From positions 320,001-384,000 of the forward strand of contig CAXXET010000006.1 in assembly GCA_963666115.2 (NCBI GenBank): a DNA stretch of 64,000 nt, given 5' to 3'. Shown piece by piece: positions 1-26,231 of the stretch (its first letter is position 1; every line of letters begins with the position of its first letter). Position numbers and translations under genes: made by a program. The notes beneath the pieces are model-generated. The model ran no database searches. It saw only the letters and a program-made list of their open reading frames with translations, and was not told the origin of the DNA. Source of the stretch: Dehalococcoidia bacterium. Its GTDB lineage: Bacteria; Chloroflexota; Dehalococcoidia; UBA6926.

Positions 1-1244
1 TTGACGTGGTGAGGCGTTATCTTGGCCATCGGGGCTACAACGTGCGGGTCGTGCAGAACTTCACGGACGTTGACGACAAGATCATCGCGCGCGCCCAGGA
101 GACGGGGCAGACCGCAGCGGAACTCGCGGAGACCTACATGGGCCTCTTCCGCGAAGACATGGAGTTGCTGAACGTGCTTCCGGCGGACGAATACCCGCTT
201 GCAACTGCTGAAGTGCCTTCGATGATTGAGATGATTTCCGGCCTCATCGACAAGGGGTTCGCGTATGCCGCAGGCGGCGACGTCTACTTCCGCGTGGACA
301 GGTTCGACAGCTACGGCAAGCTCTCTCACCGCACGCCGGACGGGATGATGGCGGGGGCGCGGGTCGCCCCCAATGAGCTCAAGGAATCGCCTCTGGACTT
401 CACGCTGTGGAAGGGCGCGAAGGAAGGCGAGCCGTCATGGGACAGCCCGTGGGGTCCCGGCCGCCCCGGCTGGCACATCGAGTGCTCTGCCATGTCCCTG
501 TCCTATCTCGGCCAAAAGATCGACATTCACGGCGGCGGGGCGGACCTGATCTTTCCCCACCATGAGAACGAAATCGCCCAGACGGAGGCATTCACCGGCA
601 CTGAGCCGTTCGCGCAGCACTGGCTCCACAACGGGCTGCTGCAACTCGGCGAGGAGAAGATGAGCAAGTCGCTCGGCAACCTCGTCTCCATCCGCGAGGT
701 TGTTGAGCAGCACGGCGCGGACGCGTTCCGGCTGTTCGTGCTGACATCCCACTACCGGATGCCGCTGACGTGGACGGACGATGGCGTTTTGGCGTCGGCC
801 CGCGCGGCTGAGCGGCTGTCTCGCGCCGCATGGGCAGCCGGAGGCGAGGGCAGCGCGCCCAACGTGGACGCATTCCGCGAACGTTTCCATGAGGCCATGG
901 ACGATGATCTCAACACGCCGCAGGCGCTCGCGGCACTCTTTGACATGGCCAGGGAGATCAACCGCACCGCAGGAGAGGGCGCTGATGTTTCAGACGCCTG
1001 CGCGTCATTGCGCGAGCTTGGCGGCGTGCTGGGCCTGCGGCTGGAGCAGCCCGGCAGCGCGGACGGACTCGGCGACGCCGGCCCGTTCATCGAGCTGCTG
1101 ATCGAGACACGGACGGCATTGCGGAAGGAAAAGCAGTTCGCGCTGGCGGACGGCCTGCGGGATAGGCTCGCGGAAATAGGTGTCGTGCTGGAGGATACGC
1201 CGCGCGGCACGGAATGGCGGTTCGAGCGGCGCGGCGGGCAATAG
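1..1244 (+). CDS. cysS: Cysteine--tRNA ligase (5' end outside window)
   Basis: NFTDVDDKII, GRPGWHIECSAM, DIHGGGxDLIFPHHENE and KMSKS motifs. Confidence 0.97.
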   Translation, partial: DVVRRYLGHRGYNVRVVQNFTDVDDKIIARAQETGQTAAELAETYMGLFREDMELLNVLPADEYPLATAEVPSMIEMISGLIDKGFAYAAGGDVYFRVDRFDSYGKLSHRTPDGMMAGARVAPNELKESPLDFTLWKGAKEGEPSWDSPWGPGRPGWHIECSAMSLSYLGQKIDIHGGGADLIFPHHENEIAQTEAFTGTEPFAQHWLHNGLLQLGEEKMSKSLGNLVSIREVVEQHGADAFRLFVLTSHYRMPLTWTDDGVLASARAAERLSRAAWAAGGEGSAPNVDAFRERFHEAMDDDLNTPQALAALFDMAREINRTAGEGADVSDACASLRELGGVLGLRLEQPGSADGLGDAGPFIELLIETRTALRKEKQFALADGLRDRLAEIGVVLEDTPRGTEWRFERRGGQ

Positions 1245-1284
1245 GAATCAATCGCCAAGACTCGTCCAGGAGCAGCTTTTACCT

Positions 1285-1734
1285 ATGTGGCTCATCACCT
1301 TCGATATAGATGGAACCATGGAGTTTGGCGACCCAAACGGCGTCTTGACGCGGGAGCACGTCGAGTATTTCCGGTCCAAGGGCGCGATCGTCGGCAGCGC
1401 GTCAGACAGGCCTGAGAGTTCGCAGTTGATCATGTGGCGGGGCTACGGCCTAGAGCCTGACTTTGTGCTGCTCAAGCACCATATGCCGACTCTCAAGGAG
1501 CGTTACCCGGATTTGGCGACGTATTGGCACGTTGGCGACCGACCGCTGGATCAACAGACCGCGCGCCAGGCGGGCTTCACCTTCTTCTGGCCGGATCAAT
1601 TTCCGTCGCCGGAGATGGGCGACGACTTCTTCATGCACGTGAAGCCGCCCGAAGAGGGAGGATCACTCTCCGCTGGTGAGGCCGCCGTGCGCCTTGCCGC
1701 CCACGCGCTGGACGTGGACGGCGTTAGCCCGTGA
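1285..1734 (+). CDS. HAD-superfamily hydrolase
   Basis: N-terminal ITFDIDGT (DxDGT) and HVGD motifs; ATG at 1285 with AGGAG upstream. Confidence 0.75.
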   Translation: MWLITFDIDGTMEFGDPNGVLTREHVEYFRSKGAIVGSASDRPESSQLIMWRGYGLEPDFVLLKHHMPTLKERYPDLATYWHVGDRPLDQQTARQAGFTFFWPDQFPSPEMGDDFFMHVKPPEEGGSLSAGEAAVRLAAHALDVDGVSP

Positions 1735-1948
1735 ATCGCGAACTGGCTATAGCCAATACGACGAAGATGACGGCGAGCCCGATTGTGGCCTGAAACAGGG
1801 TCTTTTCAAAGCCGCGCCGCGCCCGGAAGACGGACGCGCCCGCGCCGAATACGCCGCCGAGGTCCTGCGTCCGCACCTGCAGCAGGATCGCGCCGATCAG
1901 CAGCACGGCGATCAGCAACTGCAACACGTGGATGATGATAGTGATCAT
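1724..1948 (-). CDS. secG: Preprotein translocase subunit SecG
   Basis: 74 aa, two TM helices, ILLQ..LGGVFG..RRGFEKTL pattern. Confidence 0.9.
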   Translation of the reverse strand: MITIIIHVLQLLIAVLLIGAILLQVRTQDLGGVFGAGASVFRARRGFEKTLFQATIGLAVIFVVLAIASSRFTG

Positions 1949-1984
1949 TGATTCCGTTCCTTTGGCGACATCGATTCGCTCCGT

Positions 1985-3514
1985 CTATTGTGCCTCATTG
2001 CCGGCCGGCGCGAGCGCTTGCAGCTGCTCGGCCACCAACTGGTTCGCCACTTGCGGGTTCGCCTGCCCGCGCGTGGCGCGCATGACCTGGCCCACGAGGA
2101 AACCGACGGCGTTCTGCTTGCCCTTCTGGAAATCCGCAACCGCCTTGGGGTTGGCCTCGATGGCCTCTCGCACGGCGGCACCCAGCGCGTCCTGGTCGCT
2201 GATCTGCGTCAGGCCTTTCTCCTCGACAATCTGCCCGGGGCTTTTGCCAGCGCTGAACATCTCAGGGAAGACCTCTTTGGCCATGCGAACGCTGATCGTC
2301 CCGTCGTCCATCAGGTCAAGCATCGCGGCAAGGGCAGAGGCGGCAATAGGCGAGTCCGCAATGTCCGTGTCCGCCTCGCTGAGCAGGTGCGTCAAGTCGA
2401 CCATGACCCAGTTGGCGACGGCCTTGGCGCGGGCGCGCGCAGCTTCGTCGTTGGCCTGCCCGGAGGCGTGGGTGGCTTCTTCAAAGTAGTCCGCGGTTGA
2501 GCGCGCAGCCGTCAGCAGGCCGGCGTCGTAGGCGGACAGGCCGTACTCCGACATGAAGCGGCTGTGCCGGGCATCCGGCAGTTCCGGGAGAGACTGCCGC
2601 AACTCGCCGACCCATTCCCTGCCGACGACGAGCGGAGGCAGGTCAGGCTCAGGGAAATAGCGGTAATCCTGCGCGTATTCCTTGGAACGCTGGGAGAGGG
2701 TCGAGCCCGCCTCCTCGGACCAGCCGCGCGTTTCCTGCGGGATGCGTTCGCCTCGACCCAAGAGTTCCGTCTGCCGCTGCACCTCGAACTCCAACGCGCG
2801 AAAGACGGCGCGGAAGGAGTTCATGTTCTTGACCTCAACCTTCCAGTTGGGCAGGGGGTCGCCGGGCGCGCGCATGGAGATATTGGCGTCGCAGCGGAAG
2901 CTGCCCTCCTCCATGTTGCCGGTGGAGACGCCCAGGTACTGGAGGATGGAGCGCAGCTTGGTGAGGTAGAGCCGCGCCTCCTCCGGCGAGCGCAAGTCAG
3001 GCTCGCCGACGACCTCCATGAGCGGCACACCGGAGCGGTTGATGTCCACCAGTGAATACGTCTCGCCGGTGACGTCGACGCGGTGCGTGAGGCGGGCCGT
3101 GTCCTCCTCGAGGTGGACGCGCGTGATGCCGACTTTGCGCGCCTCGCCGTCCTCCGGCTCGATCTCCAGCCAGCCGTTGCGGGTCAGCGGCAGATCGTAC
3201 TGGGAAATCTGGTAGCCCTTCATCAGGTCTGGGTAGGGGTAGTTCTTGCGGTCGAACTTGGTGTCCTCGGCGATCTCGCAGTTCAATGCGAGCGCGGTCA
3301 TGATGGTGGCCGCGACGGCCTGGCGGTTGATGACGGGCAGCGTGCCGGGGAGGCCCATGCACACCGGGCAGACACGGGTATTGGGCTCCGCGCCCGTATA
3401 GTCCGTCGAACACGCGCAGAACATCTTGCTGTGGGTGAGGAGCTGGGCGTGAACCTCCAGCCCGATTACGGGTTCAAGCGCACGTTCAGTGGGGGCGGTG
3501 GCGGTGGCAGTCAT
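1985..3514 (-). CDS. gatB: Asp/Glu-tRNA amidotransferase subunit B
   Basis: [14 protein letters not shown], FDRKNYxYPDL, [11 protein letters not shown] motifs. Confidence 0.97.
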
Positions 3515-3548
3515 GGCTTATTCGTACGGGAATCTCGCTGGCCCTGGA

Positions 3549-3881
3549 TCATTCGTCCCTCGGCAGGGGACCACTGCCGCCCAAGCGACCCGTAACGCGG
3601 TAGCCGACTCGTTCAGCCCACACCTCTGTGGCGTTAGGGCACTCCACGCGCAAGCGGTCTGTCGCCTCCAGAGTGTCCTTGCCCAAGGCCCATTTCCTCG
3701 TTTCGATGTCGATTGCGACGATCTTCCCGTCGTGGTCGTTTATGACCTGCGGTCGGATGTCCTCGTGGTAAATCTCCTTACCGTGGCGGGCAGTTTCATC
3801 AGCCGATAGCCGAGGCAATCGCCTTGCAATCTCCTCAGGCGTTCGTCCCGCCTTGCCCGTCTTCGTTTCCCTCTCGCTCAT
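3549..3881 (-). CDS. Small DUF5678-like protein
   Basis: GKEIY..IRP..GKIVAIDIET pattern; ATG at 3881 with GGAGAG upstream; paralog at 4912-5193. Confidence 0.6.
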   Translation of the reverse strand: MSERETKTGKAGRTPEEIARRLPRLSADETARHGKEIYHEDIRPQVINDHDGKIVAIDIETRKWALGKDTLEATDRLRVECPNATEVWAERVGYRVTGRLGGSGPLPRDE

Positions 3882-3951
3882 CGTTCTCTCCTGCCTGCGT
3901 GGACACGCCCCATGGCCACTCCCATATTGTATGCCCAATCGGAAAGTGGGG

Positions 3952-3979
3952 TTGACCAGAGCCCGTCCGCTGCTATACT
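3952..3979 (+). promoter_or_regulatory. Sigma70-like promoter (TTGACC-16 nt-TATACT, extended -10 TG)
   Basis: Near-consensus hexamers upstream of the 60-aa ORF. Confidence 0.5.
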
Positions 3980-4035
3980 CAGCATCCCAAACATGAGTTT
4001 GTGTGACGGACGCTCCGTCGTAAGGAGGAACCATC

Positions 4036-4218
4036 ATGGGTGAGAAGAAGAGCTTTTCCATCGACCGCAACGGCAAGGTTGAGCGGACGACCGTGGGTGC
4101 TACTGGTCAGAAGCATGTCGATACTGAGGGAAAGCAAGGCAGAAACGGGCATTTCAAGGACGAGGGACAGTATCGCAGGGCAATTGAGAAGGCTGTGAAG
4201 GATAACAGCCGGTCATAG
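4036..4218 (+). CDS. Small basic hypothetical protein (60 aa)
   Basis: TAAGGAGG RBS directly upstream and a promoter-like sequence. Confidence 0.6.
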   Translation: MGEKKSFSIDRNGKVERTTVGATGQKHVDTEGKQGRNGHFKDEGQYRRAIEKAVKDNSRS

Positions 4219-4285
4219 GCGTGGACTCAAGTTCCAGCGTGGTACGGGTCGAGCTTAGTCCCGACAGCGTTCATCTGTCCGAGCG

Positions 4286-4909
4286 TTGGCTTTGCACATC
4301 GCCCCCCTTCTGAGAGACGGCTTCATTGTCGTGATGGTGCTTCTTGTGGCCGTCGCTTGCGATCCGTCTGAAAGCGGGGACGCTACGTCAACTGAAACGA
4401 TCATCCCGGAGGCCACGACGGAAGCGGTCGTGGCGACCCTTGAAGCCGAACTTAGTATGCAGGCGACGGTGGATGCAGCTGTGCCAACTATCGAGGCGCT
4501 CCTTGGCGAGTTTGCTACGGAGGAAGCCCAGATCTCCGGCGCCCTCCGTGTTACCCGCGTTATCGATGGCGACACTGTGGATGTTTGCTGCCCGGAGGCG
4601 CGAGTTCGTTTGCTTGGTATCGATGCGCCGGAGAGTGGGGAGCCACACTCGGATGAGGCGATCGGGATGGTGGAACGCCTGACACAGGGCCAGCCGATCC
4701 GCCTCGAAAAGTGCGAAGAAGAGGCGGATCGGTATGGCCGCCTTCTACGCCATGCTTTCGTTGGCGGAACCCATGTCAACCGCGAACTCGTCGAGGCAGG
4801 CCTCGCCCGCGCGTACGATTTCTCGCTCAACCTCAACCCCTGCTACGAGGACGAGCTGCGCGAGGCCGAGAGCGAGGCGCAGTGGGAAGGCCTGGGCATG
4901 TGGGAGTGA
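4286..4909 (+). CDS. Thermonuclease (SNase) family protein, probable lipoprotein
   Basis: VIDGDT, RVRLLGIDAPE, DRYGRLL, LVEAGLA, GLGMW motifs; AVAC lipobox; exact start uncertain. Confidence 0.88.
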   Translation: MALHIAPLLRDGFIVVMVLLVAVACDPSESGDATSTETIIPEATTEAVVATLEAELSMQATVDAAVPTIEALLGEFATEEAQISGALRVTRVIDGDTVDVCCPEARVRLLGIDAPESGEPHSDEAIGMVERLTQGQPIRLEKCEEEADRYGRLLRHAFVGGTHVNRELVEAGLARAYDFSLNLNPCYEDELREAESEAQWEGLGMWE

Positions 4910-4911
4910 CG

Positions 4912-5193
4912 CTATCTTCCGGCGCCATCCTCTCCTGCTATTCCGACCGTGAACAAGAGAATCTGGCTTATGCCGGGACACTTCTCACGCAGGAGGTGCG
5001 ACGCCTCGTCGGAATCCTTGCCCAGAGCCCAGTTCCCTGAGCGTGTGTCGATCGCGACTATCTCCCCAACGTGGTCGTCGATCACCAGATGGCGGATGTC
5101 TCGCTGATAAATTCGCTCGCCAATCAGACGCTGCTCAAGCATCATCATTCGCCATCCGTGTCCAAAGACATCCCTAAAACTTCGTGGCATCAC
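4912..5193 (-). CDS. DUF5678-like protein, possibly degenerate paralog of 3549-3881
   Basis: GERIY..IR..GEIVAIDTRSGNWALGKD aligns with the 3549-3881 product. Confidence 0.45.
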   Translation of the reverse strand: MMPRSFRDVFGHGWRMMMLEQRLIGERIYQRDIRHLVIDDHVGEIVAIDTRSGNWALGKDSDEASHLLREKCPGISQILLFTVGIAGEDGAGR

Positions 5194-5208
5194 AAGTGAC
5201 TCGCTCAG

Positions 5209-5961
5209 CTAGTCCCTGACAGGCGGCTCCATGAAAAAGCCCGCCAGCAGACCGATGGCCGAGAGCGCAAAGACTGCCGCCGGACAGTCATGCTCGTCCC
5301 GTTTTTCGTCCTCAGCTTGCGATCCGCGAGCCCTCAGGCTCTTTGGATCGACAGCCCTTTTAGGTGGAGTCCTTTCCTCGAACGGGATTCGATCCTTATT
5401 CAACTCCCTGAATTCCAGGTCCGTCAGGTCGAGCTTTTTTCTGTTGCAGACGCGACATGCCAGCTGCGTGTTGCGTCTATGGTCCTGGCCGCCTCTCGCT
5501 TTTGGAACCATGTGCTCCAGTTCAAGCTGGTTATAGGGGTACTGTCGACCGCAGTAGTTGCAGACACCGTCATTCTGCCTGTGGAACCAGTAGCGCTTGT
5601 CTTTGGCCTTCGGATCGTCTGCGCCCTCATAGTGGTCATACGGGCGCGCGCCGGAGGATGGTTTCACGGCTATTCTCCGCTGAGACCTCTGGCACATGAG
5701 GCACAAGTCATACTCGGACGGCTTGAAGCTGCCGCACTCAAGGCACTCGGAGATTACTCCCCGTCTCTCTTGTTCAAAGTGAGATCGACACAGGCGGTGC
5801 TTGTCCGGGATGACCGTGTCGCAATTCTGCTCACGGCACTTGTTAGGTTCCAGCGATTCAGTCTGTAAAGCCGCGTAACACTCGCCGCAATACTCGAACC
5901 ACGGCGGCTTATTCTTGCCGCACCGAGCGCACTCTCGCGGAAAGCGCTGTGTCATGGGCAC
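5209..5961 (-). CDS. HNH endonuclease with N-terminal Cys-rich repeats
   Basis: CNYCG..LEHMVPKARGG..N..LACRVCN HNH motif; several CxxC pairs. Confidence 0.85.
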   Translation of the reverse strand: MPMTQRFPRECARCGKNKPPWFEYCGECYAALQTESLEPNKCREQNCDTVIPDKHRLCRSHFEQERRGVISECLECGSFKPSEYDLCLMCQRSQRRIAVKPSSGARPYDHYEGADDPKAKDKRYWFHRQNDGVCNYCGRQYPYNQLELEHMVPKARGGQDHRRNTQLACRVCNRKKLDLTDLEFRELNKDRIPFEERTPPKRAVDPKSLRARGSQAEDEKRDEHDCPAAVFALSAIGLLAGFFMEPPVRD

Positions 5962-5987
5962 CCCTTCGAATGCCGGTTAGCGTCCGC

Positions 5988-8063
<2,076 letters not shown>

Positions 8064-8154
8064 GATTGTCGGTCAACCCTCCTGCCCGTTTCGCAAAAAA
8101 CGACGGGATTAGCCCCGTCTCAGATAGGAAAATAGCATTTGCGCCCCTATCCCG

Positions 8155-8952
8155 TCAATTGAGAACGCTGCCCGTCACCCCCGCCACCGCCTCGCGGAGA
8201 GCGTCCAGGCGGTCTATCGCCGAGTACGCTGTCGCGTCCATCTGGACGGGGGTGATGGATACTTTCTTCTCTCGCAGCGCCCATACGTCCGTCCCCTCCT
8301 GCGTATCGACGCGACGGCGGCTTGTCTGCCGCTCGATGCTGATCCAGTAGTAATCGCGACGCCCATCGTTCCCGTGCGTCACCTCAAAGTTCACCGCGCG
8401 CGGCACCAGGTTCGTGATCTCCACGCCTCGCAGCGCGTCCAGCCCCAGGTTTGGCACCGTCACGTTAAAGAGGAGGCCCGCGTACCGCTCCTTGTCGGCA
8501 AGAATCCGCTCCGCCAGCGCGCGCGCCACTGCCGCCGCCGTCGTGTACCGCGTCCGCTTCCGCAGCGGCATGGAAATCGCGATGGCCGGTATCCCGCGGA
8601 TATGCGCGTGCAGCGCCGCGCCCACCGTGCCGGATAGGAACACGTCCGCCCCCAGGTTGGTGCCGTGGTTGATGCCGGAGATCACCAGGTCAGGCTTTTC
8701 CTCCGCCATGATGTGGCCGAGCGCGACGATGACCGCGTCACCCGGCGTCCCGTCCACGGCGTAGTGGCGCGCGCCTCGCGTCCGCAGGCGGCGCACTCGC
8801 ACGGGCCGGTGCAGCGTGAAGCTCGCCCCCATCCCGCTCTGCTCGCGGTCCGGCGCCACGACGGTTATCTCGCCCAGCCCGCGCAGCGACTTCACCAGCG
8901 CGAGAATCCCGGGCGCGTGTATCCCGTCATCGTTCGTCAACAGCAATCGCAC
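8155..8952 (-). CDS. surE: 5'/3'-nucleotidase SurE
   Basis: LLTNDDG, GTPxD, SGINxGxN, SGTVGAA motifs. Confidence 0.95.
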   Translation of the reverse strand: MRLLLTNDDGIHAPGILALVKSLRGLGEITVVAPDREQSGMGASFTLHRPVRVRRLRTRGARHYAVDGTPGDAVIVALGHIMAEEKPDLVISGINHGTNLGADVFLSGTVGAALHAHIRGIPAIAISMPLRKRTRYTTAAAVARALAERILADKERYAGLLFNVTVPNLGLDALRGVEITNLVPRAVNFEVTHGNDGRRDYYWISIERQTSRRRVDTQEGTDVWALREKKVSITPVQMDATAYSAIDRLDALREAVAGVTGSVLN

Positions 8953-9052
8953 GCCGCAAGTCTACCCTACTCTGCGGTAGGATGAACGCATGCCCCCGCC
9001 TTCACGGGGGATACGGTAGGGAGCGGGGGTTCGGTAAGGAAAGGAGAACGAA

Positions 9053-9454
9053 ATGGCGCGGTCAATCACATTGGACGAGGCAAACACGGTCATCGCCGGC
9101 GCAATCGCCAAGGCGGAGGAGCAGGGGACGAAGATGAGCATCTCCGTCGTCGACGCGGGCGGGCGTTTGGTCGCCTTCGCGCGGATGGACGGCGCGATCT
9201 GGGCGGGCGTCTACGGCTCGCACGGCAAGGCGATAGCCTCCGCCGCGTTCGGTCGACCGTCGGGATTCTTCCAGGAGATGGCGAGCAACCCGATTTTCGC
9301 GGGCATCAAGGCCGCCGAGGGCGACCACATGATCCTGAGCCTGGGCGCAGTGCCGATCGAAAAGGACGGAGAGGTCATTGGGGCGGTCGGCGTCGGCGGC
9401 GGCACGGGCCAGCAGGATGAGGATTGCGCGGTTGCGGGGGCTGGGGGGGTGTAG
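9053..9454 (+). CDS. GlcG/HbpS family heme-binding protein
   Basis: ISVVDxGG..FARMDGA..KA, GAVGVGG..QDE; AAGGAG RBS. Confidence 0.9.
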   Translation: MARSITLDEANTVIAGAIAKAEEQGTKMSISVVDAGGRLVAFARMDGAIWAGVYGSHGKAIASAAFGRPSGFFQEMASNPIFAGIKAAEGDHMILSLGAVPIEKDGEVIGAVGVGGGTGQQDEDCAVAGAGGV

Positions 9455-9496
9455 GCGGTAGGTGGTATCCTTTTGGGGTAGTGGGAGGGGGAGACT

Positions 9497-10366
9497 ATGC
9501 CTGATGGGGAGAGCGTCGCGACATACCGAGCATTGAGCCTGGGTGCCGGAGTCCAAAGCTCGGTGCTTGCTTTGTTACTATCGCGCGGCGACCAGCGGCT
9601 TGTCGATGCAGGCTATCCGAAACCAGATTTGGCGGTGTTTGCTGATACCGGGTGGGAACCGGACTACGTCTATGAGCATCTGGACTGGTTGGAAACGCAG
9701 CTTGATTTTGAACTCATCCGGGTGAGCGACGGCAATCTCAGGGAGAATTTGAGGCGTGCCAAGACGGTAACCGGGCATGACTTTGTCGACGTTCCGATGT
9801 TCGTGACGAATCCCGATGGCGGGGCAGGTATTCTCCGTCGCCAATGCACGAATCACTACAAGATCCGGCCGATCCATCGGGCAGTGAGGGAACGGGCTGG
9901 AGGAAAGCGCGGACGCCCGTTCCCGAAAAACACCCACGCCGAGATGTGGCTTGGAATCTCAACGGATGAGATTGTGCGAATGAAGCCGAGCCGTGAACCA
10001 TGGACGGTGCATCGATGGCCGCTAATCGACATCGGTATGTCGCGCCAGGACTGCCTCGACTGGTTTGAGAGTGAATACCCTGACCGGCATCTGCCCAGGT
10101 CGGCCTGTGTCATCTGCCCCTATCGCTCTGACGCCCATTGGCAGGAGATGCGCGAGTACGAGCCCGAGAGCTTTGACGAGGCGGTCGCATTTGACAGGTG
10201 GCTGCGAAAGTCGTCAAAGAACCCGGTGCGGCAAGTGCTTGCGGGTCGCCCGTATCTGCATAGGACGCGCAGACCCCTTGGTAGCGCAGTTGAGGGTCTT
10301 GCGAGCGGCACACTTGTTGATGATGGGCTGTTTGAGGATGAATGTGAAGGTCACTGTGGCGTCTGA
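9497..10366 (+). CDS. PAPS-reductase-like / PP-loop adenine nucleotide alpha-hydrolase family protein with Cys motifs
   Basis: SLGAGVQS PP-loop variant, FADTGWE, RQCT, SACVICPY, C-terminal CEGHCGV. Confidence 0.75.
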   Translation: MPDGESVATYRALSLGAGVQSSVLALLLSRGDQRLVDAGYPKPDLAVFADTGWEPDYVYEHLDWLETQLDFELIRVSDGNLRENLRRAKTVTGHDFVDVPMFVTNPDGGAGILRRQCTNHYKIRPIHRAVRERAGGKRGRPFPKNTHAEMWLGISTDEIVRMKPSREPWTVHRWPLIDIGMSRQDCLDWFESEYPDRHLPRSACVICPYRSDAHWQEMREYEPESFDEAVAFDRWLRKSSKNPVRQVLAGRPYLHRTRRPLGSAVEGLASGTLVDDGLFEDECEGHCGV

Positions 10367-11591
10367 AAGTTCTACTATCCAGGCCCTTTATGGCCTTCAT
10401 CCTTATCAGCGCCAAGTTTTGGGCGATATAGTCGCGGCGCTTGCAGAGCCCGAGGGCCGGGTTGTTGCTCACCTACCTACTGGTGCTGGCAAGACCAGAA
10501 TTGCTAGCCACGTTGCGGGGCACATGCTCAACAGCAGTTCTGGAGATAGTGCCCTAGTTATCTGGCTTGCGTCCACCGAGGAACTATGTGACCAGGCCGC
10601 TGAAACACTCGAACGCGCCTGGCAGCATGTGGGCCAGAGAAACGTAACAATGAATCGGTTTTGGGGTGGACATCGAATCGATTTGCGACAGATTGAAGGT
10701 GGCTTTCTGGTTGCCGGGCTGGCGAAACTCTGGGCAGTTGCCAGCCAGGACAATACCTGGAGTCCTCATCTCGCACAAAGAACTGCGGGAGTGATCTTTG
10801 ATGAGGCTCACCAGGCAGTGGCGAGAACCTATTCATATTTGACGGAACAACTCATTGGATCAAGGACCCCGTTGCTTGGACTGACCGCAACTCCTGGCCG
10901 TAAAGCGTCCTTGAGTGATGAGGATTATGCCTTAGCGGAGATGTTTGCTCACAAGAAAGTGTCGATCGATCCCAAAGGGCACGTTAGCCCGGTTACGTAC
11001 CTGATTGCGAACGGATACCTTGCCGACCCTCGCTTTGTCACGAGGGCATTCACCGGCCAGCAGCGCGATTCACTTCGAACGAATAACGGCGATTATGCTC
11101 AGGAACTGCTCGACGAATTGGGGAGGGATCGAGAGCGCAACCAGAATATTGTAGATTGGACAGCAGACGCAGCGACTAGGCACAAGCGGATCATTGTATT
11201 CTGTCCTTCGGTCGAAAGTGTCCAGCAATGTGGGCAGCAGTTGGAGTTAAGGGGCCTCCAAGCAAACGGGATTACAGCAACGACTCCCCAAGATGTCCGC
11301 TCTGAGATTATTCGCAAATATCGCGAGACCTCGTCCACCCCCAGGATAATCTTGAATTATGGTGTCCTCACTGCGGGCTTCGACGCGCCACAGACTTCAT
11401 GCGCAATCATTGCGCGCCCGACTCAATCGCTGGTACTATATTCTCAGATGGTAGGTCGTGCGCTGCGGGGTCCGCGCGTTGGGGGAAATAGGTGGGCCGA
11501 AATACTCACCGTTGTCGACATGGACTTACCGGGGTTCGACTCTGTTACTGACGCATTTAGGAATTGGGAGGAGCTATGGCAGGAGAACTGA
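10356..11591 (+). CDS. SF2 DEAH-box (ResIII-like) helicase
   Basis: PTGAGKT, DEAH, GLTATP, QMVGRALR; GTG start inferred overlapping the upstream stop. Confidence 0.9.
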   Translation: MASESSTIQALYGLHPYQRQVLGDIVAALAEPEGRVVAHLPTGAGKTRIASHVAGHMLNSSSGDSALVIWLASTEELCDQAAETLERAWQHVGQRNVTMNRFWGGHRIDLRQIEGGFLVAGLAKLWAVASQDNTWSPHLAQRTAGVIFDEAHQAVARTYSYLTEQLIGSRTPLLGLTATPGRKASLSDEDYALAEMFAHKKVSIDPKGHVSPVTYLIANGYLADPRFVTRAFTGQQRDSLRTNNGDYAQELLDELGRDRERNQNIVDWTADAATRHKRIIVFCPSVESVQQCGQQLELRGLQANGITATTPQDVRSEIIRKYRETSSTPRIILNYGVLTAGFDAPQTSCAIIARPTQSLVLYSQMVGRALRGPRVGGNRWAEILTVVDMDLPGFDSVTDAFRNWEELWQEN

Positions 11592-13456
11592 CGCCTGACG
11601 AGAGGGAAGAATTCTCGATCCTTACTCCAGAAAGGCTTGTGGAGGCCCTGCGGGATACCAGATACAACAGCACCGCACATGCTATCGCTGAACTTGTCGA
11701 TAATTCTATCGAGGCCAATGCGCGAGAGATTAGCCTGCTTTGCGCAGAGGAATACGAGATGGTTGTCGAGCGAAGCAAGCGAAGAGTATCCGAGATAGCT
11801 GTCCTCGATAACGGTGATGGAATGGACCCGGAGACGTTAGCGCAGTCATTGATTTTCGGCGGAGGAACCAAGCACGATAGCCTGCGTGGGATGGGGAAAT
11901 ATGGAATGGGCCTGCCGACAGCATCGCTATCGCAATGCACGAAAGTCGAGATATGGAGTTGGCAGTCAGGTTACGAGAGCGCCTGGCATTCGTGGATTAA
12001 CGTCAAGGAGATAATGGCTGGCCGCCAAACTATTCCGATGCCAGACCAGGAGAAGATTCCGGATCGCTGGCTGCGCGCGGCAAGTACGGATATGTTCGAG
12101 AACCTGCCACTTTCGCACCAAAAATCGGGCACTCTGGTCGTATGGTCAGATCTTGACAAGATGCAGTGGAAAACGAGCAGCGCAATCCTGAGGAATACTG
12201 CGGAGGAGGTCGGACGGATCCATCGGCACTTTATCGCGTCAGGACGTTGCCGCATTCAGACTGTCAGCTTCTCTGCGACCAATCCAGACGACAAGCAAGC
12301 GGACATTGTCGTCCCTAACGACCCTACTTATTTGATGCCGACTACATCCACGCCCACGCCTTGGGGCGAAACTCCAATGTTTAGAGAGTGGACGAGAAAG
12401 CACTACGGCATTGAAGCGGGTGGCAGAGAAAACACAATTGATGTCGTGTACTCGATAGTCAAACCAGAAGCATTGCAAACCGACAGGGTTAGTATACAGC
12501 CGGGCAGACAGCCACACGGTGCACATGCTAGGAAGAACATAGGAGTGTCCGTGGTTCGGGAAGAACGTGAGATTATTCTCGACAAGTCATTCATGAGTGA
12601 GGGCGGCAGTTCTCGCGACCCGCGGCAGCGGTGGTGGGGTTGTGAAGTTAGGTTCGGGCGTGACGCCGACGAGTTTTTCGGGATAGACACCAAAAAGCAG
12701 GCCGTCTGGAAATTCACTAAGGCTGCTCAAGAGCTCGCCAGTGATGATAGACCAATAGCAGTTGTTCTTGATGAAATGGGTGTGGAGAGAGACCCGATTT
12801 ATGAATTGGTTTTCGAAATCAAGAATGAAATTGGAAACCTGATGCGGGAAATCAATAAGATGTTCGGCCAGCGAACGGGCGAATCGACTGAAGACAGGAA
12901 GCACAGCCCAGAGACGAAGGCTGCCGGCAGCATGTCAGAAGCCATAAAGGACGCAATCGAGGCCGGAGAAGAAAAGGAGACGCAGACAGACGAAGACCGG
13001 CGGACAATTCCTCCTGACGAGAGAGAAGAGGCGATCGCACTGGAACTAGAAGAATCGGGGCGGCCTCCCGAGAGAGCCAAAGAGCTTGCAATGGGACTGG
13101 TGCAACAGGAGCAAGGTTTTGTCTTTGATGTTGGACAAGTTTCAGGATACTCCATTTTTGACGTGCGTTCCAGCAAAGGCATATTGCACCTGACTCTGAA
13201 TATGGATCACCCAGTTTACGACTACTTGAACGTTATCGAACAAGATATCCGTGAAAACGCCGACGAGAACAGCCCCGAATTCAAGGCGGCTGTGGCAATT
13301 CGCCTACTATTGCTATGTTGGGCACGCATGGAAGACCAGGCTGCTACTCGCGAGGAGCGGATGCAGATACAGGATATTGCGGCGAAGTGGGGACGTCACG
13401 TTGACCGGGCGGTGAGGCACGCTAGCTCGGAGGACCCGGAGATGCCGACTGGATGA
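11576..13456 (+). CDS. MORC-like GHKL ATPase
   Basis: AIAELVDNSIEA, DNGDGM, GKYGMGL, SGTLVVW GHKL motifs; long C-terminal region. Confidence 0.85.
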   Translation: MAGELTPDEREEFSILTPERLVEALRDTRYNSTAHAIAELVDNSIEANAREISLLCAEEYEMVVERSKRRVSEIAVLDNGDGMDPETLAQSLIFGGGTKHDSLRGMGKYGMGLPTASLSQCTKVEIWSWQSGYESAWHSWINVKEIMAGRQTIPMPDQEKIPDRWLRAASTDMFENLPLSHQKSGTLVVWSDLDKMQWKTSSAILRNTAEEVGRIHRHFIASGRCRIQTVSFSATNPDDKQADIVVPNDPTYLMPTTSTPTPWGETPMFREWTRKHYGIEAGGRENTIDVVYSIVKPEALQTDRVSIQPGRQPHGAHARKNIGVSVVREEREIILDKSFMSEGGSSRDPRQRWWGCEVRFGRDADEFFGIDTKKQAVWKFTKAAQELASDDRPIAVVLDEMGVERDPIYELVFEIKNEIGNLMREINKMFGQRTGESTEDRKHSPETKAAGSMSEAIKDAIEAGEEKETQTDEDRRTIPPDEREEAIALELEESGRPPERAKELAMGLVQQEQGFVFDVGQVSGYSIFDVRSSKGILHLTLNMDHPVYDYLNVIEQDIRENADENSPEFKAAVAIRLLLLCWARMEDQAATREERMQIQDIAAKWGRHVDRAVRHASSEDPEMPTG

Positions 13457-14304
13457 TTGTCTCAGAAAGTACCGGCTTCAGTGTTCCTCCTCAGAATGCC
13501 GTCTTTATTGCCGCTCCATACATAAGGGCTGCCGCTCTGACTCGGTTCCTTGCGAATGTGCCCTCTGTGCCAGAGTTGACCTGTGTTACTCGCTGGCAAC
13601 CTAAGGATCTGGCGCTTGGTGTATCAGAGGTGGAGTGTCGACGGATCATCCTTAACAGGGGAGGCCATTTCCTGCTGCACCCAACGTTGCACGCCAAGTA
13701 TTATCGATTTGATGATGAGATTCTGATTGGCTCGGCCAATTTGACGATGTCGGGTATGGGCTGGTCATGGAGATCGAATCTGGAGATACTGGCACCGCCC
13801 TCAGACGCATTTGACTACCTAGCATTCGAGTCGGAACTCTTAGCGAGAGCCAGACCGATTTCCGACGTCGAATTCGAGCAATGGGCGTCTATCCAAGATC
13901 TCGGAACAGAGGCTGTGGGTTCGACGCCACAGTTCGCTCAAGCACCTGATTGGCGACCGGTTACTCGCGAATTTGAGAATTTCTCCAGAGCCTACTACGG
14001 CCGGTTACGCGAGATACCTTCAATTGATGAGGCGCGACGGGCCCAAAGCGATATTGTGACTTTGCAGTTGCCGCCCAACCAAGTGCCTGAATCACTGCGC
14101 AGACTGGTGACTACAGCCCTCTTGGCGTCTCCCTACGCGTCGGATGTCCTGCGCGTTCAGCATATGGACGCGGTGGATGCTGCTCGTGAGTTGGCTACGT
14201 TGTATGACCTGCCGTTACACTTGGCGCGGCGCGACATGGAAACCGTCCATAATTGGCTGAGAGAATTAGCCCCGGAACTGCTACCATCATCGGAGGATCA
14301 GTAG
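13453..14304 (+). CDS. Phospholipase D-family nuclease (single HKD motif)
   Basis: LHAKYYRFD..IGSANLT; ATGA overlap with the MORC gene stop. Confidence 0.8.
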   Translation: MIVSESTGFSVPPQNAVFIAAPYIRAAALTRFLANVPSVPELTCVTRWQPKDLALGVSEVECRRIILNRGGHFLLHPTLHAKYYRFDDEILIGSANLTMSGMGWSWRSNLEILAPPSDAFDYLAFESELLARARPISDVEFEQWASIQDLGTEAVGSTPQFAQAPDWRPVTREFENFSRAYYGRLREIPSIDEARRAQSDIVTLQLPPNQVPESLRRLVTTALLASPYASDVLRVQHMDAVDAARELATLYDLPLHLARRDMETVHNWLRELAPELLPSSEDQ

Positions 14305-14328
14305 CGCCATCGCAGAAAGGACACCGCC

Positions 14329-14802
14329 ATGACAAACCAACAACAATACGACGGCCCATCCCCCGCGCTCTCTATCTACGTCAACTTTGATGGGAACTGC
14401 CGGGAGGTGTTTGATGCTTACCTGGCTGTGTTTGGGGGGGAGTTCTCCAATTTGATGACGTTTGCGGATTTGCCGCCGGATGATGATTCGCCGCCTTTGC
14501 CGGACGGGTGGGGGGACAAGATCATGCACGTCGCCCTGCCCATCGGCGACGGGGTCCTCATGGGGAGCGACATGCCGCCCGGCTTCGGCCCGCCCCTCGC
14601 CGCCGGCAACAATTTCTCCGTCAGCTATGCCGCGCCCACGCGCGACGAGGCGAACCGCGTCTTCGCGGCCCTCGCGGAGGGCGGGGAGGTCACGATGGAT
14701 CTCCAGGACATGTTCTGGGGCGACTACTTCGGCACCTGCACTGACCGGTTCGGCATCAACTGGCAGGTTCACCACACAGTGGCCGAGGACGCGGGCGGGT
14801 AA
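14329..14802 (+). CDS. VOC/PhnB family protein
   Basis: YVNFDGNC, IMH, LMGSD, FWGDYFGxCTDRFGINW. Confidence 0.9.
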   Translation: MTNQQQYDGPSPALSIYVNFDGNCREVFDAYLAVFGGEFSNLMTFADLPPDDDSPPLPDGWGDKIMHVALPIGDGVLMGSDMPPGFGPPLAAGNNFSVSYAAPTRDEANRVFAALAEGGEVTMDLQDMFWGDYFGTCTDRFGINWQVHHTVAEDAGG

Positions 14803-20452: not shown

Positions 20453-20528
<76 letters not shown>

Positions 20529-24367: not shown

Positions 24368-25585
24368 GTGCCGGTGACCAACAGAGCGACGGACCTACAG
24401 CGGGCTGAGAGCGCCGATTCGTCGGCGCAGCCTGGCCCAATCGAGAATCAGCTTCATCTGCCCAGCCTGTACATATCAGGATTCAGGGGTATTGGGGAGT
24501 TGAACCTGCCGAGGCTTGCCCAGGTGACGCTGTTCGTTGGCGACAACGGCGTTGGGAAATCGACGATTTTGGACGCCGTTAGGCTGTACGCGGGGAGGGG
24601 CAACCTGAATGCGATAGCCCAGCTTTTGGATTCAAGGGAGGAGTACTCTCAGGCATGGGAAAATGGGGAACTGGTGGACAATCTCTGGTGGCCCGCATTG
24701 TTTCGCAAAATGCCGAGGGACACTGACCAGCGACTTGAAATAGGGCCTGCGCCAGAGGCTGATGGTGGTGGCGGACTTGTCATTGAGACCGTAACCCTTG
24801 ATGAAGACTCTGCGGAAGTCAGGCAGAGACGAGGTGTAGGCGGTGGGATAGCATCCGGGTCTTTCTTCAAGGTGGTCGTTCGCTTTAACGGTGAGGAGTG
24901 GCGCCTCTACGACTATAATCTTCAGAATGCGAAACCCTCCCCGAATTCGTCCCCGGAGGCGGAGATTGCAGTGGCCATGGAGCGACGGGAAGAGATTCCG
25001 GGGACGATATGCGAATCAGTTGGACCGGGATTGCCGGACAATGACGACCTGGGCCGCAAGTGGGACGAGATTGCCCTGACGTCATTTGAGGACGACGTCG
25101 TCGAAATCTTGCGCCCAATTGTTGGGCCTGATCTTGAACGAGTGGGAGTTGTCGGGAAACCCCTGGGGCCTCTGCACAAGCCAGATCGGCAGGTCGTCGC
25201 GCGACTTCGGGGTGACCGAAACAGGATGCCACTCAAGAGCCTCGGCGATGGTGCGCTGCGCTTCTTTGACATGGCCGTGACTCTCGCAAACAGCGCCGAC
25301 GGCTACCTGCTTATCGATGAGGTTGAAAACGGCATCCACTACTCCCACTTCGAAGAACTCTGGCGAATGATTCTTGAGGCTGCTGTTGAGCGCAACATCC
25401 AGGTTCTTGCCACGACCCACAGTTTCGATTGCGTAGCGGGATTTGCCCGTGCTGCCAACTCGCTCCCCGGTGACAACGGCATGCTGATTCGCCTGGACAA
25501 GGGCGATGACGGCGAAATCAAGACCGCTCAGTACTCAGAGGATCTTTTGTCGGTTGCCGACGAGATGGGGATAGAGGTTCGTTAG
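24368..25585 (+). CDS. AAA/ABC-like ATPase (AAA_15/AAA_21 type)
   Basis: GDNGVGKST, SLGDG, LIDEVENGIH, TTHS; start uncertain. Confidence 0.88.
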   Translation: MPVTNRATDLQRAESADSSAQPGPIENQLHLPSLYISGFRGIGELNLPRLAQVTLFVGDNGVGKSTILDAVRLYAGRGNLNAIAQLLDSREEYSQAWENGELVDNLWWPALFRKMPRDTDQRLEIGPAPEADGGGGLVIETVTLDEDSAEVRQRRGVGGGIASGSFFKVVVRFNGEEWRLYDYNLQNAKPSPNSSPEAEIAVAMERREEIPGTICESVGPGLPDNDDLGRKWDEIALTSFEDDVVEILRPIVGPDLERVGVVGKPLGPLHKPDRQVVARLRGDRNRMPLKSLGDGALRFFDMAVTLANSADGYLLIDEVENGIHYSHFEELWRMILEAAVERNIQVLATTHSFDCVAGFARAANSLPGDNGMLIRLDKGDDGEIKTAQYSEDLLSVADEMGIEVR

Positions 25586-25589
25586 GTAA

Positions 25590-26231
25590 ATGACCTCACC
25601 GTCCCGTCTAGGCCGGGCTACAGATCCGGCGAAGTTGCTTCTGGTTGAAGGAAGCGATGATTTACAGGTAGTGCGTCGGCTAGCACGTGAGAACATCCCC
25701 GAGCTACAGTTTGAGATATGGCAGCGACAGGGAATCGACAACCTTCTAAAGGCGATACCGCTACAGTACTTGCGTCAGGGTACAACGGCTCTTGGGATTC
25801 TTGTTGATGCTGACGACAACCTGCAATTTCGATGGAACGATGTTGCTGACAGTTTGAGGCAGGTACGAGTGGACTTACCTACTGAACCGGACCCGGCCGG
25901 AACTGTTCTTGAAGGAGCACCGCGAGTAGGTGTTTGGGTTATGCCGGACAATCGCTCCAGCGGTCAGCTTGAGGACTTCATTCACAAGATGATTCCTGAA
26001 TCCGATCCGGTCTGGCCTCGCTCCGAGGCGTATATTGATGGGATACCAGGACGTGACCGCAAGTTCGGCCGAACCAAGGTCCTGCGTGCAAAGGTAGGTG
26101 CTTGGCTCGCGGCTCGTGAGCGCCCACGTCCGGTGTGGATCGGTATCGAGCAGGGCGACCTTCAACTTGAAGAGAATAGCAGGGCCTTCCTGGATTGGCT
26201 CCAGCGGCTATTTGGTGACGTTCTGCCCTAG
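25590..26231 (+). CDS. DUF3226-like TOPRIM-fold protein
   Basis: LLVEGSDD, GILVDADD, GVWVMPDN..GQLEDF. Confidence 0.75.
   Translation: MTSPSRLGRATDPAKLLLVEGSDDLQVVRRLARENIPELQFEIWQRQGIDNLLKAIPLQYLRQGTTALGILVDADDNLQFRWNDVADSLRQVRVDLPTEPDPAGTVLEGAPRVGVWVMPDNRSSGQLEDFIHKMIPESDPVWPRSEAYIDGIPGRDRKFGRTKVLRAKVGAWLAARERPRPVWIGIEQGDLQLEENSRAFLDWLQRLFGDVLP

Follow-up and report, generated by a model that had tools for sequence, protein, structure and literature searches.

A mobile four-gene cassette of a Dehalococcoidia bacterium that joins a phage-type PAPS-reductase-fold enzyme to a candidate helicase-GHKL-PLD restriction module

The stretch of DNA analysed here (hereafter, the window) comprises 64,000 nucleotides (nt) from the genome of a Dehalococcoidia bacterium (Chloroflexota; GenBank assembly GCA_963666115.2, contig CAXXET010000006.1, positions 320,001 to 384,000). 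It contains a cassette of four genes that encode, in this order, a solo enzyme with the phosphoadenosine phosphosulfate (PAPS) reductase fold (gene 1), a superfamily 2 (SF2) helicase (gene 2), a GHKL ATPase (gene 3) and a phospholipase D (PLD) family nuclease (gene 4); genes 2 to 4 are referred to below as the trio. The cassette is real, intact and mobile. Comparison with related loci suggests that it is probably a defence system of the restriction-modification type, in which gene 1 would stand in for the phosphorothioate modification module SspABCD. Coordinates are positions within the window, and genes lie on the plus strand unless stated otherwise (Table 1).

A low-GC island with four overlapping genes

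The cassette occupies an island of low GC content, 0.53-0.58 over positions 9500-14500 against 0.64-0.68 on either side, in agreement with the AT-richness noticed by eye in a preliminary description of this DNA. A DNA search of five congeners identified an empty site in one of them (G004), where the HbpS-like and glyoxalase genes that border the island are ~100 bp apart. In the alignment of the window to this site, homology stops at ~9458 and restarts at ~14316, so the island is a discrete insertion of ~4.86 kb.

The open reading frames (ORFs) bear out the preliminary description of four co-oriented genes, each starting before the preceding one stops, with overlaps of 29 or 11 nt between genes 1 and 2, 16 nt between genes 2 and 3, and 4 nt between genes 3 and 4. 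The start and stop pairs given there for the second and third overlaps (11576/11591 and 13453/13456) stand, whereas gene 2, for which the GTG at 10356 had been taken as the start, may instead begin at the ATG at 10338. The ORF of gene 3 is open from a TTG at 11564.

Table 1. Coordinates of the island, the four cassette genes and the two bordering genes
Feature	Position	Strand	Remarks
Low-GC inserted island with the whole cassette	9459..14315		Delimited by GC content and by empty-site alignment to congener G004
Gene 1, solo PAPS-reductase-fold enzyme, putatively DNA-marking	9497..10366	+	289 amino acids (aa); phrog_424 type
Gene 2, SF2 (ResIII/DEAH) helicase or translocase	10338 (ATG) or 10356 (GTG)..11591	+	417 or 411 aa
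Gene 3, GHKL ATPase (HATPase_c_3, MORC/paraMORC-like) with a long C-terminal region	11576 (ATG)..13456	+	626 aa
Gene 4, single-HKD PLD-family nuclease with a C-terminal helical extension	13453..14304	+	283 aa
HbpS-like gene, host backbone, outside the system	9053..9454	+	PF03928, 1.6e-32; beside the glyoxalase gene in congeners
Glyoxalase-fold gene, host backbone, outside the system	14329..14802	+	PF00903, 6.5e-8; kept in congeners

The PAPS-reductase-fold enzyme

Gene 1 belongs with the phage protein family phrog_424, annotated as 'phosphoadenosine phosphosulfate reductase', which it matches over residues 11-289 with 162.8 bits (E 2.8e-47). The score against the Pfam model PAPS_reduct is 19.5 bits, under the cut-off of 22.5, and gene 1 does not qualify as an assimilatory PAPS or adenosine phosphosulfate (APS) reductase (CysH); no NCBIfam model matched it. 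The match to the PADLOC model of SspD (43.2 bits, E 9.7e-12, positions 4-202 of 277) falls short of a strong one: the true SspD proteins of two other loci, L187 and L185, score 384 and 364 bits at full length. On these profile comparisons, gene 1 is classed as a phrog_424-family enzyme and not as a true SspD, DndC or CysH. The fold assignment of the preliminary description, which called gene 1 PAPS-reductase-like, is upheld, with PAPS_reduct remaining below its cut-off. The family is large, with more than 6,615 database sequences recognized as relatives among 8,000 candidates scored. Gene 1 is present in a single copy in its genome; a role in sulfate assimilation was rejected because a separate, genuine CysH-type gene (177.9 bits) lies elsewhere in the same genome.

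Structure prediction and residue conservation are based on an alignment (A2) of 94 rows, that is, the window protein and 93 of 160 fetched homologs, with pairs at 85% identity or more collapsed. The AlphaFold (AF2) model obtained with A2 has a predicted local distance difference test (pLDDT) score of 91.3, with a disordered tail at residues 284-289; a model from a shallow alignment (A1) reached a pLDDT of 57.9 and was discarded. Foldseek comparison of the model to the Protein Data Bank (PDB) recovered the core fold only, which is common to CysH, GMP synthetase, LarE and TtuA. The best fold was CysH (E 2e-4, TMq 0.40), within a range of 0.38-0.41 for CysH-type structures that likewise covers the core only. 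Profile searches of the PDB returned no match with the A1 profile and, with the A2 profile, only a weak one across the CxxC region, to chain 21fy_C ('PptA', 270 aa; E 0.0046). The same chain matches true SspD at E 3.7e-8; a literature search yielded nothing relevant on PptA.

The residues invariant in the 94 sequences are G16, G18, Q20, S21, D50, T51, R115 and C117 and, further along the chain, K122, E158, C204, C207, E282, C283, G285 and C287. In an alignment with two SspD proteins (A5), the SspD cysteines line up with C117 (in an RxCT motif), C204 and C207 (CxxC) and C283 and C287 (the C-terminal pair). The phosphate-binding loop is where the two families part: the canonical PP-loop motif SGGxDS is lacking in the gene 1 family, which has S-L-G-A-G-V-Q-S-S against S-G-G-K-D-S in SspD.

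The helicase, the GHKL ATPase and the PLD protein

The preliminary description identified genes 2 to 4 as an SF2 helicase, a MORC ATPase and a PLD nuclease. The first and the last of these assignments hold; for gene 3, the GHKL ATPase part stands, and 'MORC' proved too specific, to be read as a MORC/paraMORC-type GHKL ATPase.

Gene 2 matches the Pfam families ResIII (3e-17), DEAD (7.8e-15) and Helicase_C (3.5e-13). Its best match in PADLOC is PbeA (59 bits, 5.9e-17) and in NCBIfam RadD (97 bits vs a cut-off of 720); dnd_restrict_1 of NCBIfam is matched with 30.6 bits vs a cut-off of 600. The motifs PTGAGKTR, DEAHQA and GLTATPGR and the core of motif VI (Q, M, G, R, R, G) are the same in all 30 aligned copies.

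Gene 3 contains the ATP-binding motifs of GHKL proteins within a HATPase_c_3 domain (PF13589, 76.4 bits, E 2.7e-21), and across 34 copies, conservation of the N-box EL.DNS..A.A, of D.G.GM and of GKYG.GLPT is at least 95%. Similarity to human MORC2 is weak and confined to the N-terminal GHKL part (E 0.0012, residues 32-122), as is the match to MzaB (40 bits in PADLOC, also seen with NCBIfam), which is weak and N-terminal. The Protein Atlas places gene 3 only in generic 'ATP-binding protein' clusters; one look-alike cluster, in which Morc6_S5 occurs in 20% of the members, is only a lead to a possible S5 domain behind the GHKL domain.

In gene 4, the Pfam matches to PLDc_2 (3.4e-4) and PLDc (9.9e-4) are both below the cut-off, and DrmC is matched with 26.7 bits in PADLOC (6.2e-7) and 17.2 bits in NCBIfam vs a cut-off of 133. 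The chain has one HxK(x)4D(x)6GSxN motif, LHAKYYRFDDEILIGSANLT, as expected of a putative PLD nuclease of the Nuc/BfiI type, and H80, K82, G93, S94, A95 and N96 are identical in all 31 aligned copies. A PDB search with gene 4 gave no match. Prediction of a complex of the helicase and the PLD protein from their own alignments (A4 and A3) scored 0.00 in two runs, which had no controls and have no bearing on binding.

The catalytic motifs of the trio are well conserved among its copies. In stop-to-stop translations of 36 helicase, 34 GHKL and 33 PLD copies, the Walker A, DEAH and III/VI motifs of the helicase, the N-box, G1 and G2 of the GHKL protein and the HxK...GSxN of the PLD protein are kept in at least 95%.

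Conservation of the four-gene set

Scanning of genomes, one per species, for gene 1 matched at least 568 stretches, and a relative is encoded in at least 518 of them; the 80 best-scoring loci were retained, and their content was established by tblastn and ORF analysis. A close homolog of gene 1 (62-71% identity) is encoded in 31 of the 80, and 26 of these 31 contain all four genes in the order found in the window. Among the other five, three are cut by contig ends (L007, L012 and L015) and two are truncated within long contigs (L014 and L022). The same order recurs in all 11 further loci recovered through the GHKL protein (see below), as well as in congener G002 and in G322, so that the synteny search proposed in the preliminary description reveals a rigidly co-inherited set.

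In a quick maximum-likelihood tree, all 26 rows that combine the solo enzyme with the trio form one clade (SH-aLRT 99), in which Chloroflexota, Latescibacterota, Acidobacteriota, Binatota and Pseudomonadota are mixed. The set is thus found in at least five phyla, and the mixed composition of a single clade indicates that the pairing of the solo enzyme with the trio arose once and spread by horizontal transfer.

A second group of 33 loci carries a gene 1 homolog with 43-51% identity that is fused to DUF6339 and lies behind genes matching PDC-M33A and M33B; all three M33 parts are present in 31 of these loci, and two parts in the remaining 2. DUF6339 is not mentioned in the literature searched. 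The downstream partners of this M33-type fusion vary and include GmrSD/SspE-like, DndB-like, or ResIII and AAA_23 proteins. In three cases (L033, L034 and L039), the fusion is followed by the helicase-GHKL-PLD trio, which in L033 is on the opposite strand, indicating that the two are separable modules. The last 16 of the 80 loci show neither the solo cassette nor the M33 fusion; in some of these, a small GIY-YIG gene is located beside the gene 1 homolog.

Several further features of individual loci were recorded. The helicase gene of L010 contains an internal stop; L014 and L022 have lost the genes after the helicase or after the N-terminus of the GHKL protein; the GHKL protein of L002 lacks ~150 N-terminal residues; and one of the two copies in G528 has a TAA inside the GHKL gene (G528:C1:4553536-4555398). 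Several genomes contain two loci of the gene 1 family (L034 and L039 in one record; L031 and L072; L058 and L070), and L034 and L039, both of which combine the M33 fusion with the trio, share one 1.5-Mb record. In L036 (11224-15747), and also in L040, L042 and L054, a ResIII/SNF2 helicase (724 aa) and an AAA_23 SMC-like ATPase (710 aa) are encoded downstream of the M33 fusions, a pair that is reminiscent of PbeA and PbeC.

Alternative partners of the trio

Further searches were anchored on the GHKL protein so that the presence of gene 1 was not presupposed. Relatives were found in 4 of 400 genomes of Chloroflexota, 24 of 168 genomes of Latescibacterota (at 26 places) and 9 of 401 genomes of Alphaproteobacteria; four of the nine alphaproteobacterial matches are N-terminal only and were left out of the locus comparison. 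The genomic context differs with the degree of similarity. Close GHKL relatives (49-53% identity) lie in the arrangement solo enzyme-helicase-GHKL-PLD in 15 of 15 cases. The distant full-length relatives (30-39% identity), by contrast, adjoin a canonical SspD at 16 of the 17 places that could be evaluated, three others being at contig ends, and the usual order there is SspA-SspB-SspC-SspD followed by helicase-GHKL-PLD. The Ssp genes were identified with PADLOC in two of the distant loci (SspC 1137 and 757 bits, SspD 384 and 364, SspA 497, SspB 369 and SspE 429) and by tblastn in the remaining ones. One of the two, L185 (G315), spans SspC-SspD-SspE and, 9 bp later, a GHKL gene (33% identity of the product) and a gene for a 164-aa protein that has no Pfam match (33-8368); no helicase or PLD gene is present in this locus, so the GHKL protein can also accompany SspE.

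The trio thus occurs beside one of three partners (SspABCD, the M33-type fusion or the solo enzyme), and each of these includes a PAPS-reductase-fold protein. Such an arrangement would be expected if a restriction module read what this protein produces. The solo enzyme thus occupies the place of the known phosphorothioate modification module SspABCD, and the trio is best read as a putative, hitherto undescribed restriction partner of phosphorothioate modification. The division of roles that the preliminary description had envisaged, with gene 1 as the modifier and the other three genes as the restriction arm, is favoured on both counts by this comparative evidence, including the position of distant trios beside SspABCD in 16 of 17 evaluable loci.

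The same two-module logic could hold for a mark other than phosphorothioate, such as another backbone or base modification by an adenylyl, thio or other adduct. The loop of gene 1, with its invariant glutamine in place of the aspartate of SspD and DndC, would fit such a chemistry, and so would the nearest solved folds, which are CysH-type PAPS reductases (TMq 0.38-0.41) that bind a sulfonucleotide and do not hydrolyse ATP. Gene 1 also has no SspB or SspC equivalents by its side and is only remotely SspD-like (43 bits). We nevertheless consider a different mark rather unlikely, given that the cysteine pattern is common to gene 1 and SspD, that outside the solo cassettes the trio goes with canonical phosphorothioate genes in 16 of 17 loci and that a single-gene phosphorothioate writer, tdpC, is reported in a passage of PMC12914056.

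Phage homologs of gene 1

A scan of viral contigs matched at least 600 stretches, at least 554 of which encode a relative of gene 1. In the best 80 loci, which were kept, the homolog (~272 aa) is solitary in every case, and none of the 80 encodes the trio at E <= 1e-4. Genes for a DNA methyltransferase, DNA polymerase, primase and helicases are among the conserved neighbours scanned. Such solitary copies beside methyltransferase and replication genes follow the pattern of orphan enzymes that modify DNA for protection. In cultured phages, a homolog occurs in 49 records, including Geobacillus and Thermus phages and Mycobacterium abscessus prophages; identity to gene 1 is 42.6% in Pelagibacter phage HTVC034P and 39% in Thermus phage P23-77.

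A quite unlikely alternative is that gene 1 does not mark the DNA of its own cell but is a sensor, regulator or effector arm beside a trio that is a self-sufficient helicase-nuclease defence system. QueC-like PP-loop enzymes conjugate or modify protein or nucleotide in some defence systems, and the non-canonical loop of gene 1 and the absence of a DNA-binding partner from the island would be compatible with such a role. The phage homologs themselves are called uncharacterised in passages of PMC11437467 and PMC13551039, which suggest roles in DNA modification or anti-defence. An exact replacement of SspABCD beside the same trio would, however, be difficult to account for if the two had different roles. 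The methyltransferase genes that adjoin the solitary phage copies also speak against a sensor or effector, as do the PAPS-reductase paralogs elsewhere that pair with GmrSD/SspE-like and DndB-like proteins, typical partners of DNA modification.

A phage PAPS reductase is said, in a passage of PMC13551039, to evade Dnd. JSS1_004, considered as a 'phage PAPS reductase against Dnd', was rejected, the abstract on it describing a kinase/shutoff protein.

Insertion site and local history

The genes to the left of the island encode an H+-pyrophosphatase, SurE and the HbpS-like protein, and those to the right the glyoxalase-fold protein and a Na/H exchanger (Pfam). The island therefore sits among housekeeping genes, which agrees with the earlier statement that its neighbours are unrelated to it. 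No methyltransferase domain was detected by Pfam in the four island proteins or in the adjacent genes, as the preliminary description had also noted.

At the same site, between the HbpS-like and glyoxalase genes, congeners carry different cargo. G004 (L182) is empty; G007 (L179) has a HerA-like ATPase, a gene of unknown function and a methyltransferase; G013 (L180) has PDC-M33A/B/C with the PAPS-reductase fusion; and G009 (L181) has an MT-A70 methylase and a 770-aa DndB/DpdB-like protein. The site is a hotspot of defence cargo in this genus. Insertion mediated by a tRNA gene was rejected, the nearest one being at 20453 with none adjoining the island, and so was insertion by an integrase, none having been found by Pfam among the flanking ORFs scanned, several of which have no Pfam match.

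A full-length GHKL relative is present in 1 of 20 genomes of congeneric species, G002 (L183), at the same site as in the window. Comparison of the window genome (G000; positions 9039-14802) with G002 shows 80-89% nucleotide identity over the flanks and most of gene 1. In the 3' end of this gene the value drops to 75% and further to 68%; it amounts to 58-72% for the helicase gene and 47-60% for the GHKL gene and is back at 79-87% in the 3' end of the PLD gene. Amino acid identity of the products of genes 1-4 is 92, 69, 41 and 68%, respectively, the GHKL protein being the most divergent. Most of gene 1 and the 3' end of the PLD gene have diverged to the same degree as the flanks, and the cassette therefore predates the split of the two species. 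Its putative restriction core has since either been exchanged or undergone very rapid evolution while the modifier was kept, and the divergence of the GHKL protein suggests allele exchange or diversifying selection acting on it.

These patterns bear on the interpretation of the cassette as a mobile module of DNA repair or maintenance, in which a MutL-like ATPase, a UvrD-like helicase and a nuclease would act on damaged or sulfur-modified DNA. The combination of a GHKL protein with a helicase and a nuclease resembles mismatch repair (PMC2292703, in part), and the best NCBIfam match of the helicase is to RadD, with 97 bits vs a cut-off of 720. A repair module is nonetheless highly improbable: the sporadic distribution (1 of 20 congeners, 4 of 400 genomes of Chloroflexota and 9 of 401 of Alphaproteobacteria), the low GC content, the spread across phyla, the location in a hotspot that also takes up methylases and defence candidates and the fast turnover of the GHKL gene between congeners are all typical of defence systems.

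Two other stretches of the window deviate in composition. A second low-GC patch (24368-26231, plus strand; GC 0.559 over 24500-25999 vs ~0.65 around) encodes an AAA_21/AAA_15 ATPase (405 aa) and then a DUF3226 protein (213 aa) and looks like another small inserted two-gene module, possibly related to defence. The GC content is also lower, 0.57-0.60, over 3500-6000, where the minus strand carries a gene for an HNH endonuclease (5209-5961, 250 aa) and two ORFs with no Pfam match (3549-4076 and 4255-4836).

Proposed mode of action

Taken together, the comparisons make it probable that the cassette is a restriction-modification-type defence system in which the solo, phage-type PAPS-reductase-fold enzyme replaces SspABCD, and the helicase, GHKL ATPase and PLD protein restrict. 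This reading is favoured because the four genes are co-conserved, the solo enzyme and SspABCD substitute for each other beside the same trio and the M33-type fusion provides a third pairing. It is also favoured because gene 1 has SspD-like cysteines and solitary phage homologs, the motifs are intact, the island is in a defence hotspot, the genome has a separate CysH and there is the precedent of tdpC.

From these patterns we infer the nature of the mark, the direction in which the two modules depend on each other and the division of labour within the trio. Gene 1, with its adenine-nucleotide alpha-hydrolase fold, would mark the DNA of its own cell without SspB and SspC helpers; the mark would most likely be phosphorothioate, the sulfur for which could come from a housekeeping cysteine desulfurase. 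The SF2 helicase would translocate on DNA, the GHKL ATPase may serve as an ATP-driven clamp or matchmaker, much as MutL or MORC do, and the single-HKD PLD protein would dimerise to form the nuclease. DNA without the mark would be attacked or blocked by the trio; alternatively, and with lower probability, the mark would switch the trio on, as it does SspE.

Several observations weigh against this interpretation. With regard to gene 1, the invariant glutamine in the loop, where SspD has aspartate, means that ATP-pyrophosphatase activity is not assured; the SspD model is matched at only 43 bits compared with 364-384 bits for true SspD; and PADLOC gives no DndC match at E <= 0.01. The island encodes no cysteine desulfurase and no partner for DNA recognition or nicking of the SspB/DndE type, which leaves the choice of site unexplained. 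As for the link to Ssp, SspD is missing from the 9 kb around one distant trio locus (L196), the trio and the Ssp genes are 0.4-5 kb apart in some loci, and the adjacency could partly reflect the clustering of defence islands. Finally, the solo cassettes form one clade, so that their many copies count as one evolutionary association, and several of the copies are decaying.

Implications

The trio may be relevant to a known gap in the phosphorothioate field. Of 2,678 sspBCD clusters, 2,211 come without sspE and sspFGH, the share being reported as 83.9%, and the authors of that survey asked about other restriction partners (PMC8092258). The relevant part of a 2025 review (PMC12707154) lists three phosphorothioate restriction branches, dndFGH/sspFGH, sspE and pbeABCD. 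As a possibility that we put forward tentatively, the phrog_424 'PAPS reductases', listed in hundreds of phage genomes as auxiliary genes of sulfur metabolism, could be autonomous writers of a DNA backbone mark that replace SspABCD as single proteins, phages could use them as orphan modifiers that shield their DNA from precisely this type of restriction, and the trio could be a fourth, undescribed phosphorothioate restriction branch that explains part of the 'orphan' sspBCD clusters.

If the interpretation is correct, phosphorothioate-type immunity gains a new restriction module, and the trio becomes a concrete candidate for the orphan sspBCD clusters. An enzyme that marks DNA as the product of a single gene would make a compact tool, and backbone modification would have either a second route or an extended Tdp route. 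A testable function would likewise be available for a phage gene that is very common and at present carries a metabolic annotation. With four genes in 4.9 kb, the cassette is small and suited to heterologous testing.

Relationship to known systems

The gene set does not coincide with any of the systems to which it was compared: canonical Ssp, Dnd, Pbe, DISARM, Mza and BREX type 4 were all rejected as its identity. PADLOC (2023) returned only weak, partial matches (SspD 43 bits, PbeA 59, MzaB 40 and DrmC 27) and no strong model. In the literature searched, no paper combines a PAPS-reductase-fold gene with an SF2 helicase, a GHKL ATPase and a PLD nuclease, although the supplementary neighbourhood tables of PMC12914056, PMC6459918 and PMC8092258 may list such loci. 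In the case of DISARM, the only resemblance is the weak DrmC match, with no match to DrmA or DrmB.

The MORC/paraMORC operons described by Iyer, Abhiman and Aravind in 2008 are similar in that they combine a GHKL protein with an SF2 helicase and a nuclease, HKD nucleases being among those listed, and are laterally mobile. They differ in carrying DNA methylases, whereas in the island the position of the modifier is taken by the PAPS-reductase-fold enzyme and a linked DNA methyltransferase is lacking (PMC2292703, in the sections on these operons). The word 'PAPS' does not occur in PMC2292703.

DndCDEA-PbeABCD is another partial analog. PbeA, in which a PLD domain is joined to ResIII/Helicase_C, works in a phosphorothioate-dependent manner with a large DNA-manipulating ATPase; unlike in the island, however, PLD and helicase form one protein, the ATPase is of the SMC-like (AAA_23) type, the system also needs two small proteins and DndCDEA serves as modifier (PMC6459918, in part). 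The island has separate helicase and PLD genes with the GHKL gene between them, and it encodes no AAA_23 protein. The Dnd system itself is not represented: DndC, DndD, DndE, DndF, DndG and DndH have no PADLOC match at E <= 0.01 among the four proteins.

TdpABC, a compact phosphorothioate system of extremophiles, resembles the cassette in that modification would need just one gene with a PAPS-reductase domain. TdpA, a hexameric translocase, and TdpB, a nuclease, are not known to form a set of SF2 helicase, GHKL ATPase and PLD protein. With its one PAPS-reductase-domain gene, the island fits the Tdp architecture if gene 1 indeed modifies DNA. No named Tdp chain appeared in the PDB profile searches or among the fold matches listed to rank 50, which does not imply absence. 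According to a passage of PMC12914056, tdpABC needs only tdpC for phosphorothioate synthesis; the terms helicase, PLD and HATPase do not occur in that paper.

Two further relationships run through gene 1. The phage 'PAPS reductase' genes of phrog_424, usually annotated as auxiliary metabolic genes, belong to the same family, the phage copies in the 80 loci being solitary and free of the trio. The PADLOC candidate system PDC-M33 includes, in its component PDC-M33C, a paralogous clade of the gene 1 family fused to DUF6339; the window lacks M33A, M33B and M33C, none of these models being matched by the four proteins.

The closest relationship is to the Ssp systems, SspABCD with SspE or SspFGH. 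The differences are clear: the island has GAGVQS where SspD has SGGKDS, and the trio is neither SspE (DUF262/DUF1524) nor SspFGH. Among the four island proteins, SspB (DUF4007), SspC and SspA are not matched in Pfam or PADLOC, and SspE, SspF, SspG and SspH are not matched in PADLOC at E <= 0.01. The terms helicase, ATPase, phospholipase and HATPase do not occur in the paper on SspFGH (PMC8092258). The statement of the preliminary description that the set has neither dnd nor ssp gene content is therefore borne out, but a lack of relationship to Ssp does not follow. Gene 1 is a remote SspD homolog with a common cysteine pattern, the overall logic of a modifier and an ATP-driven restriction module appears analogous, and the distant helicase-GHKL-PLD trios, at 16 of 17 evaluable loci, adjoin SspA-B-C-D, so that the putative restriction trio is common to the solo cassettes and to Ssp loci.

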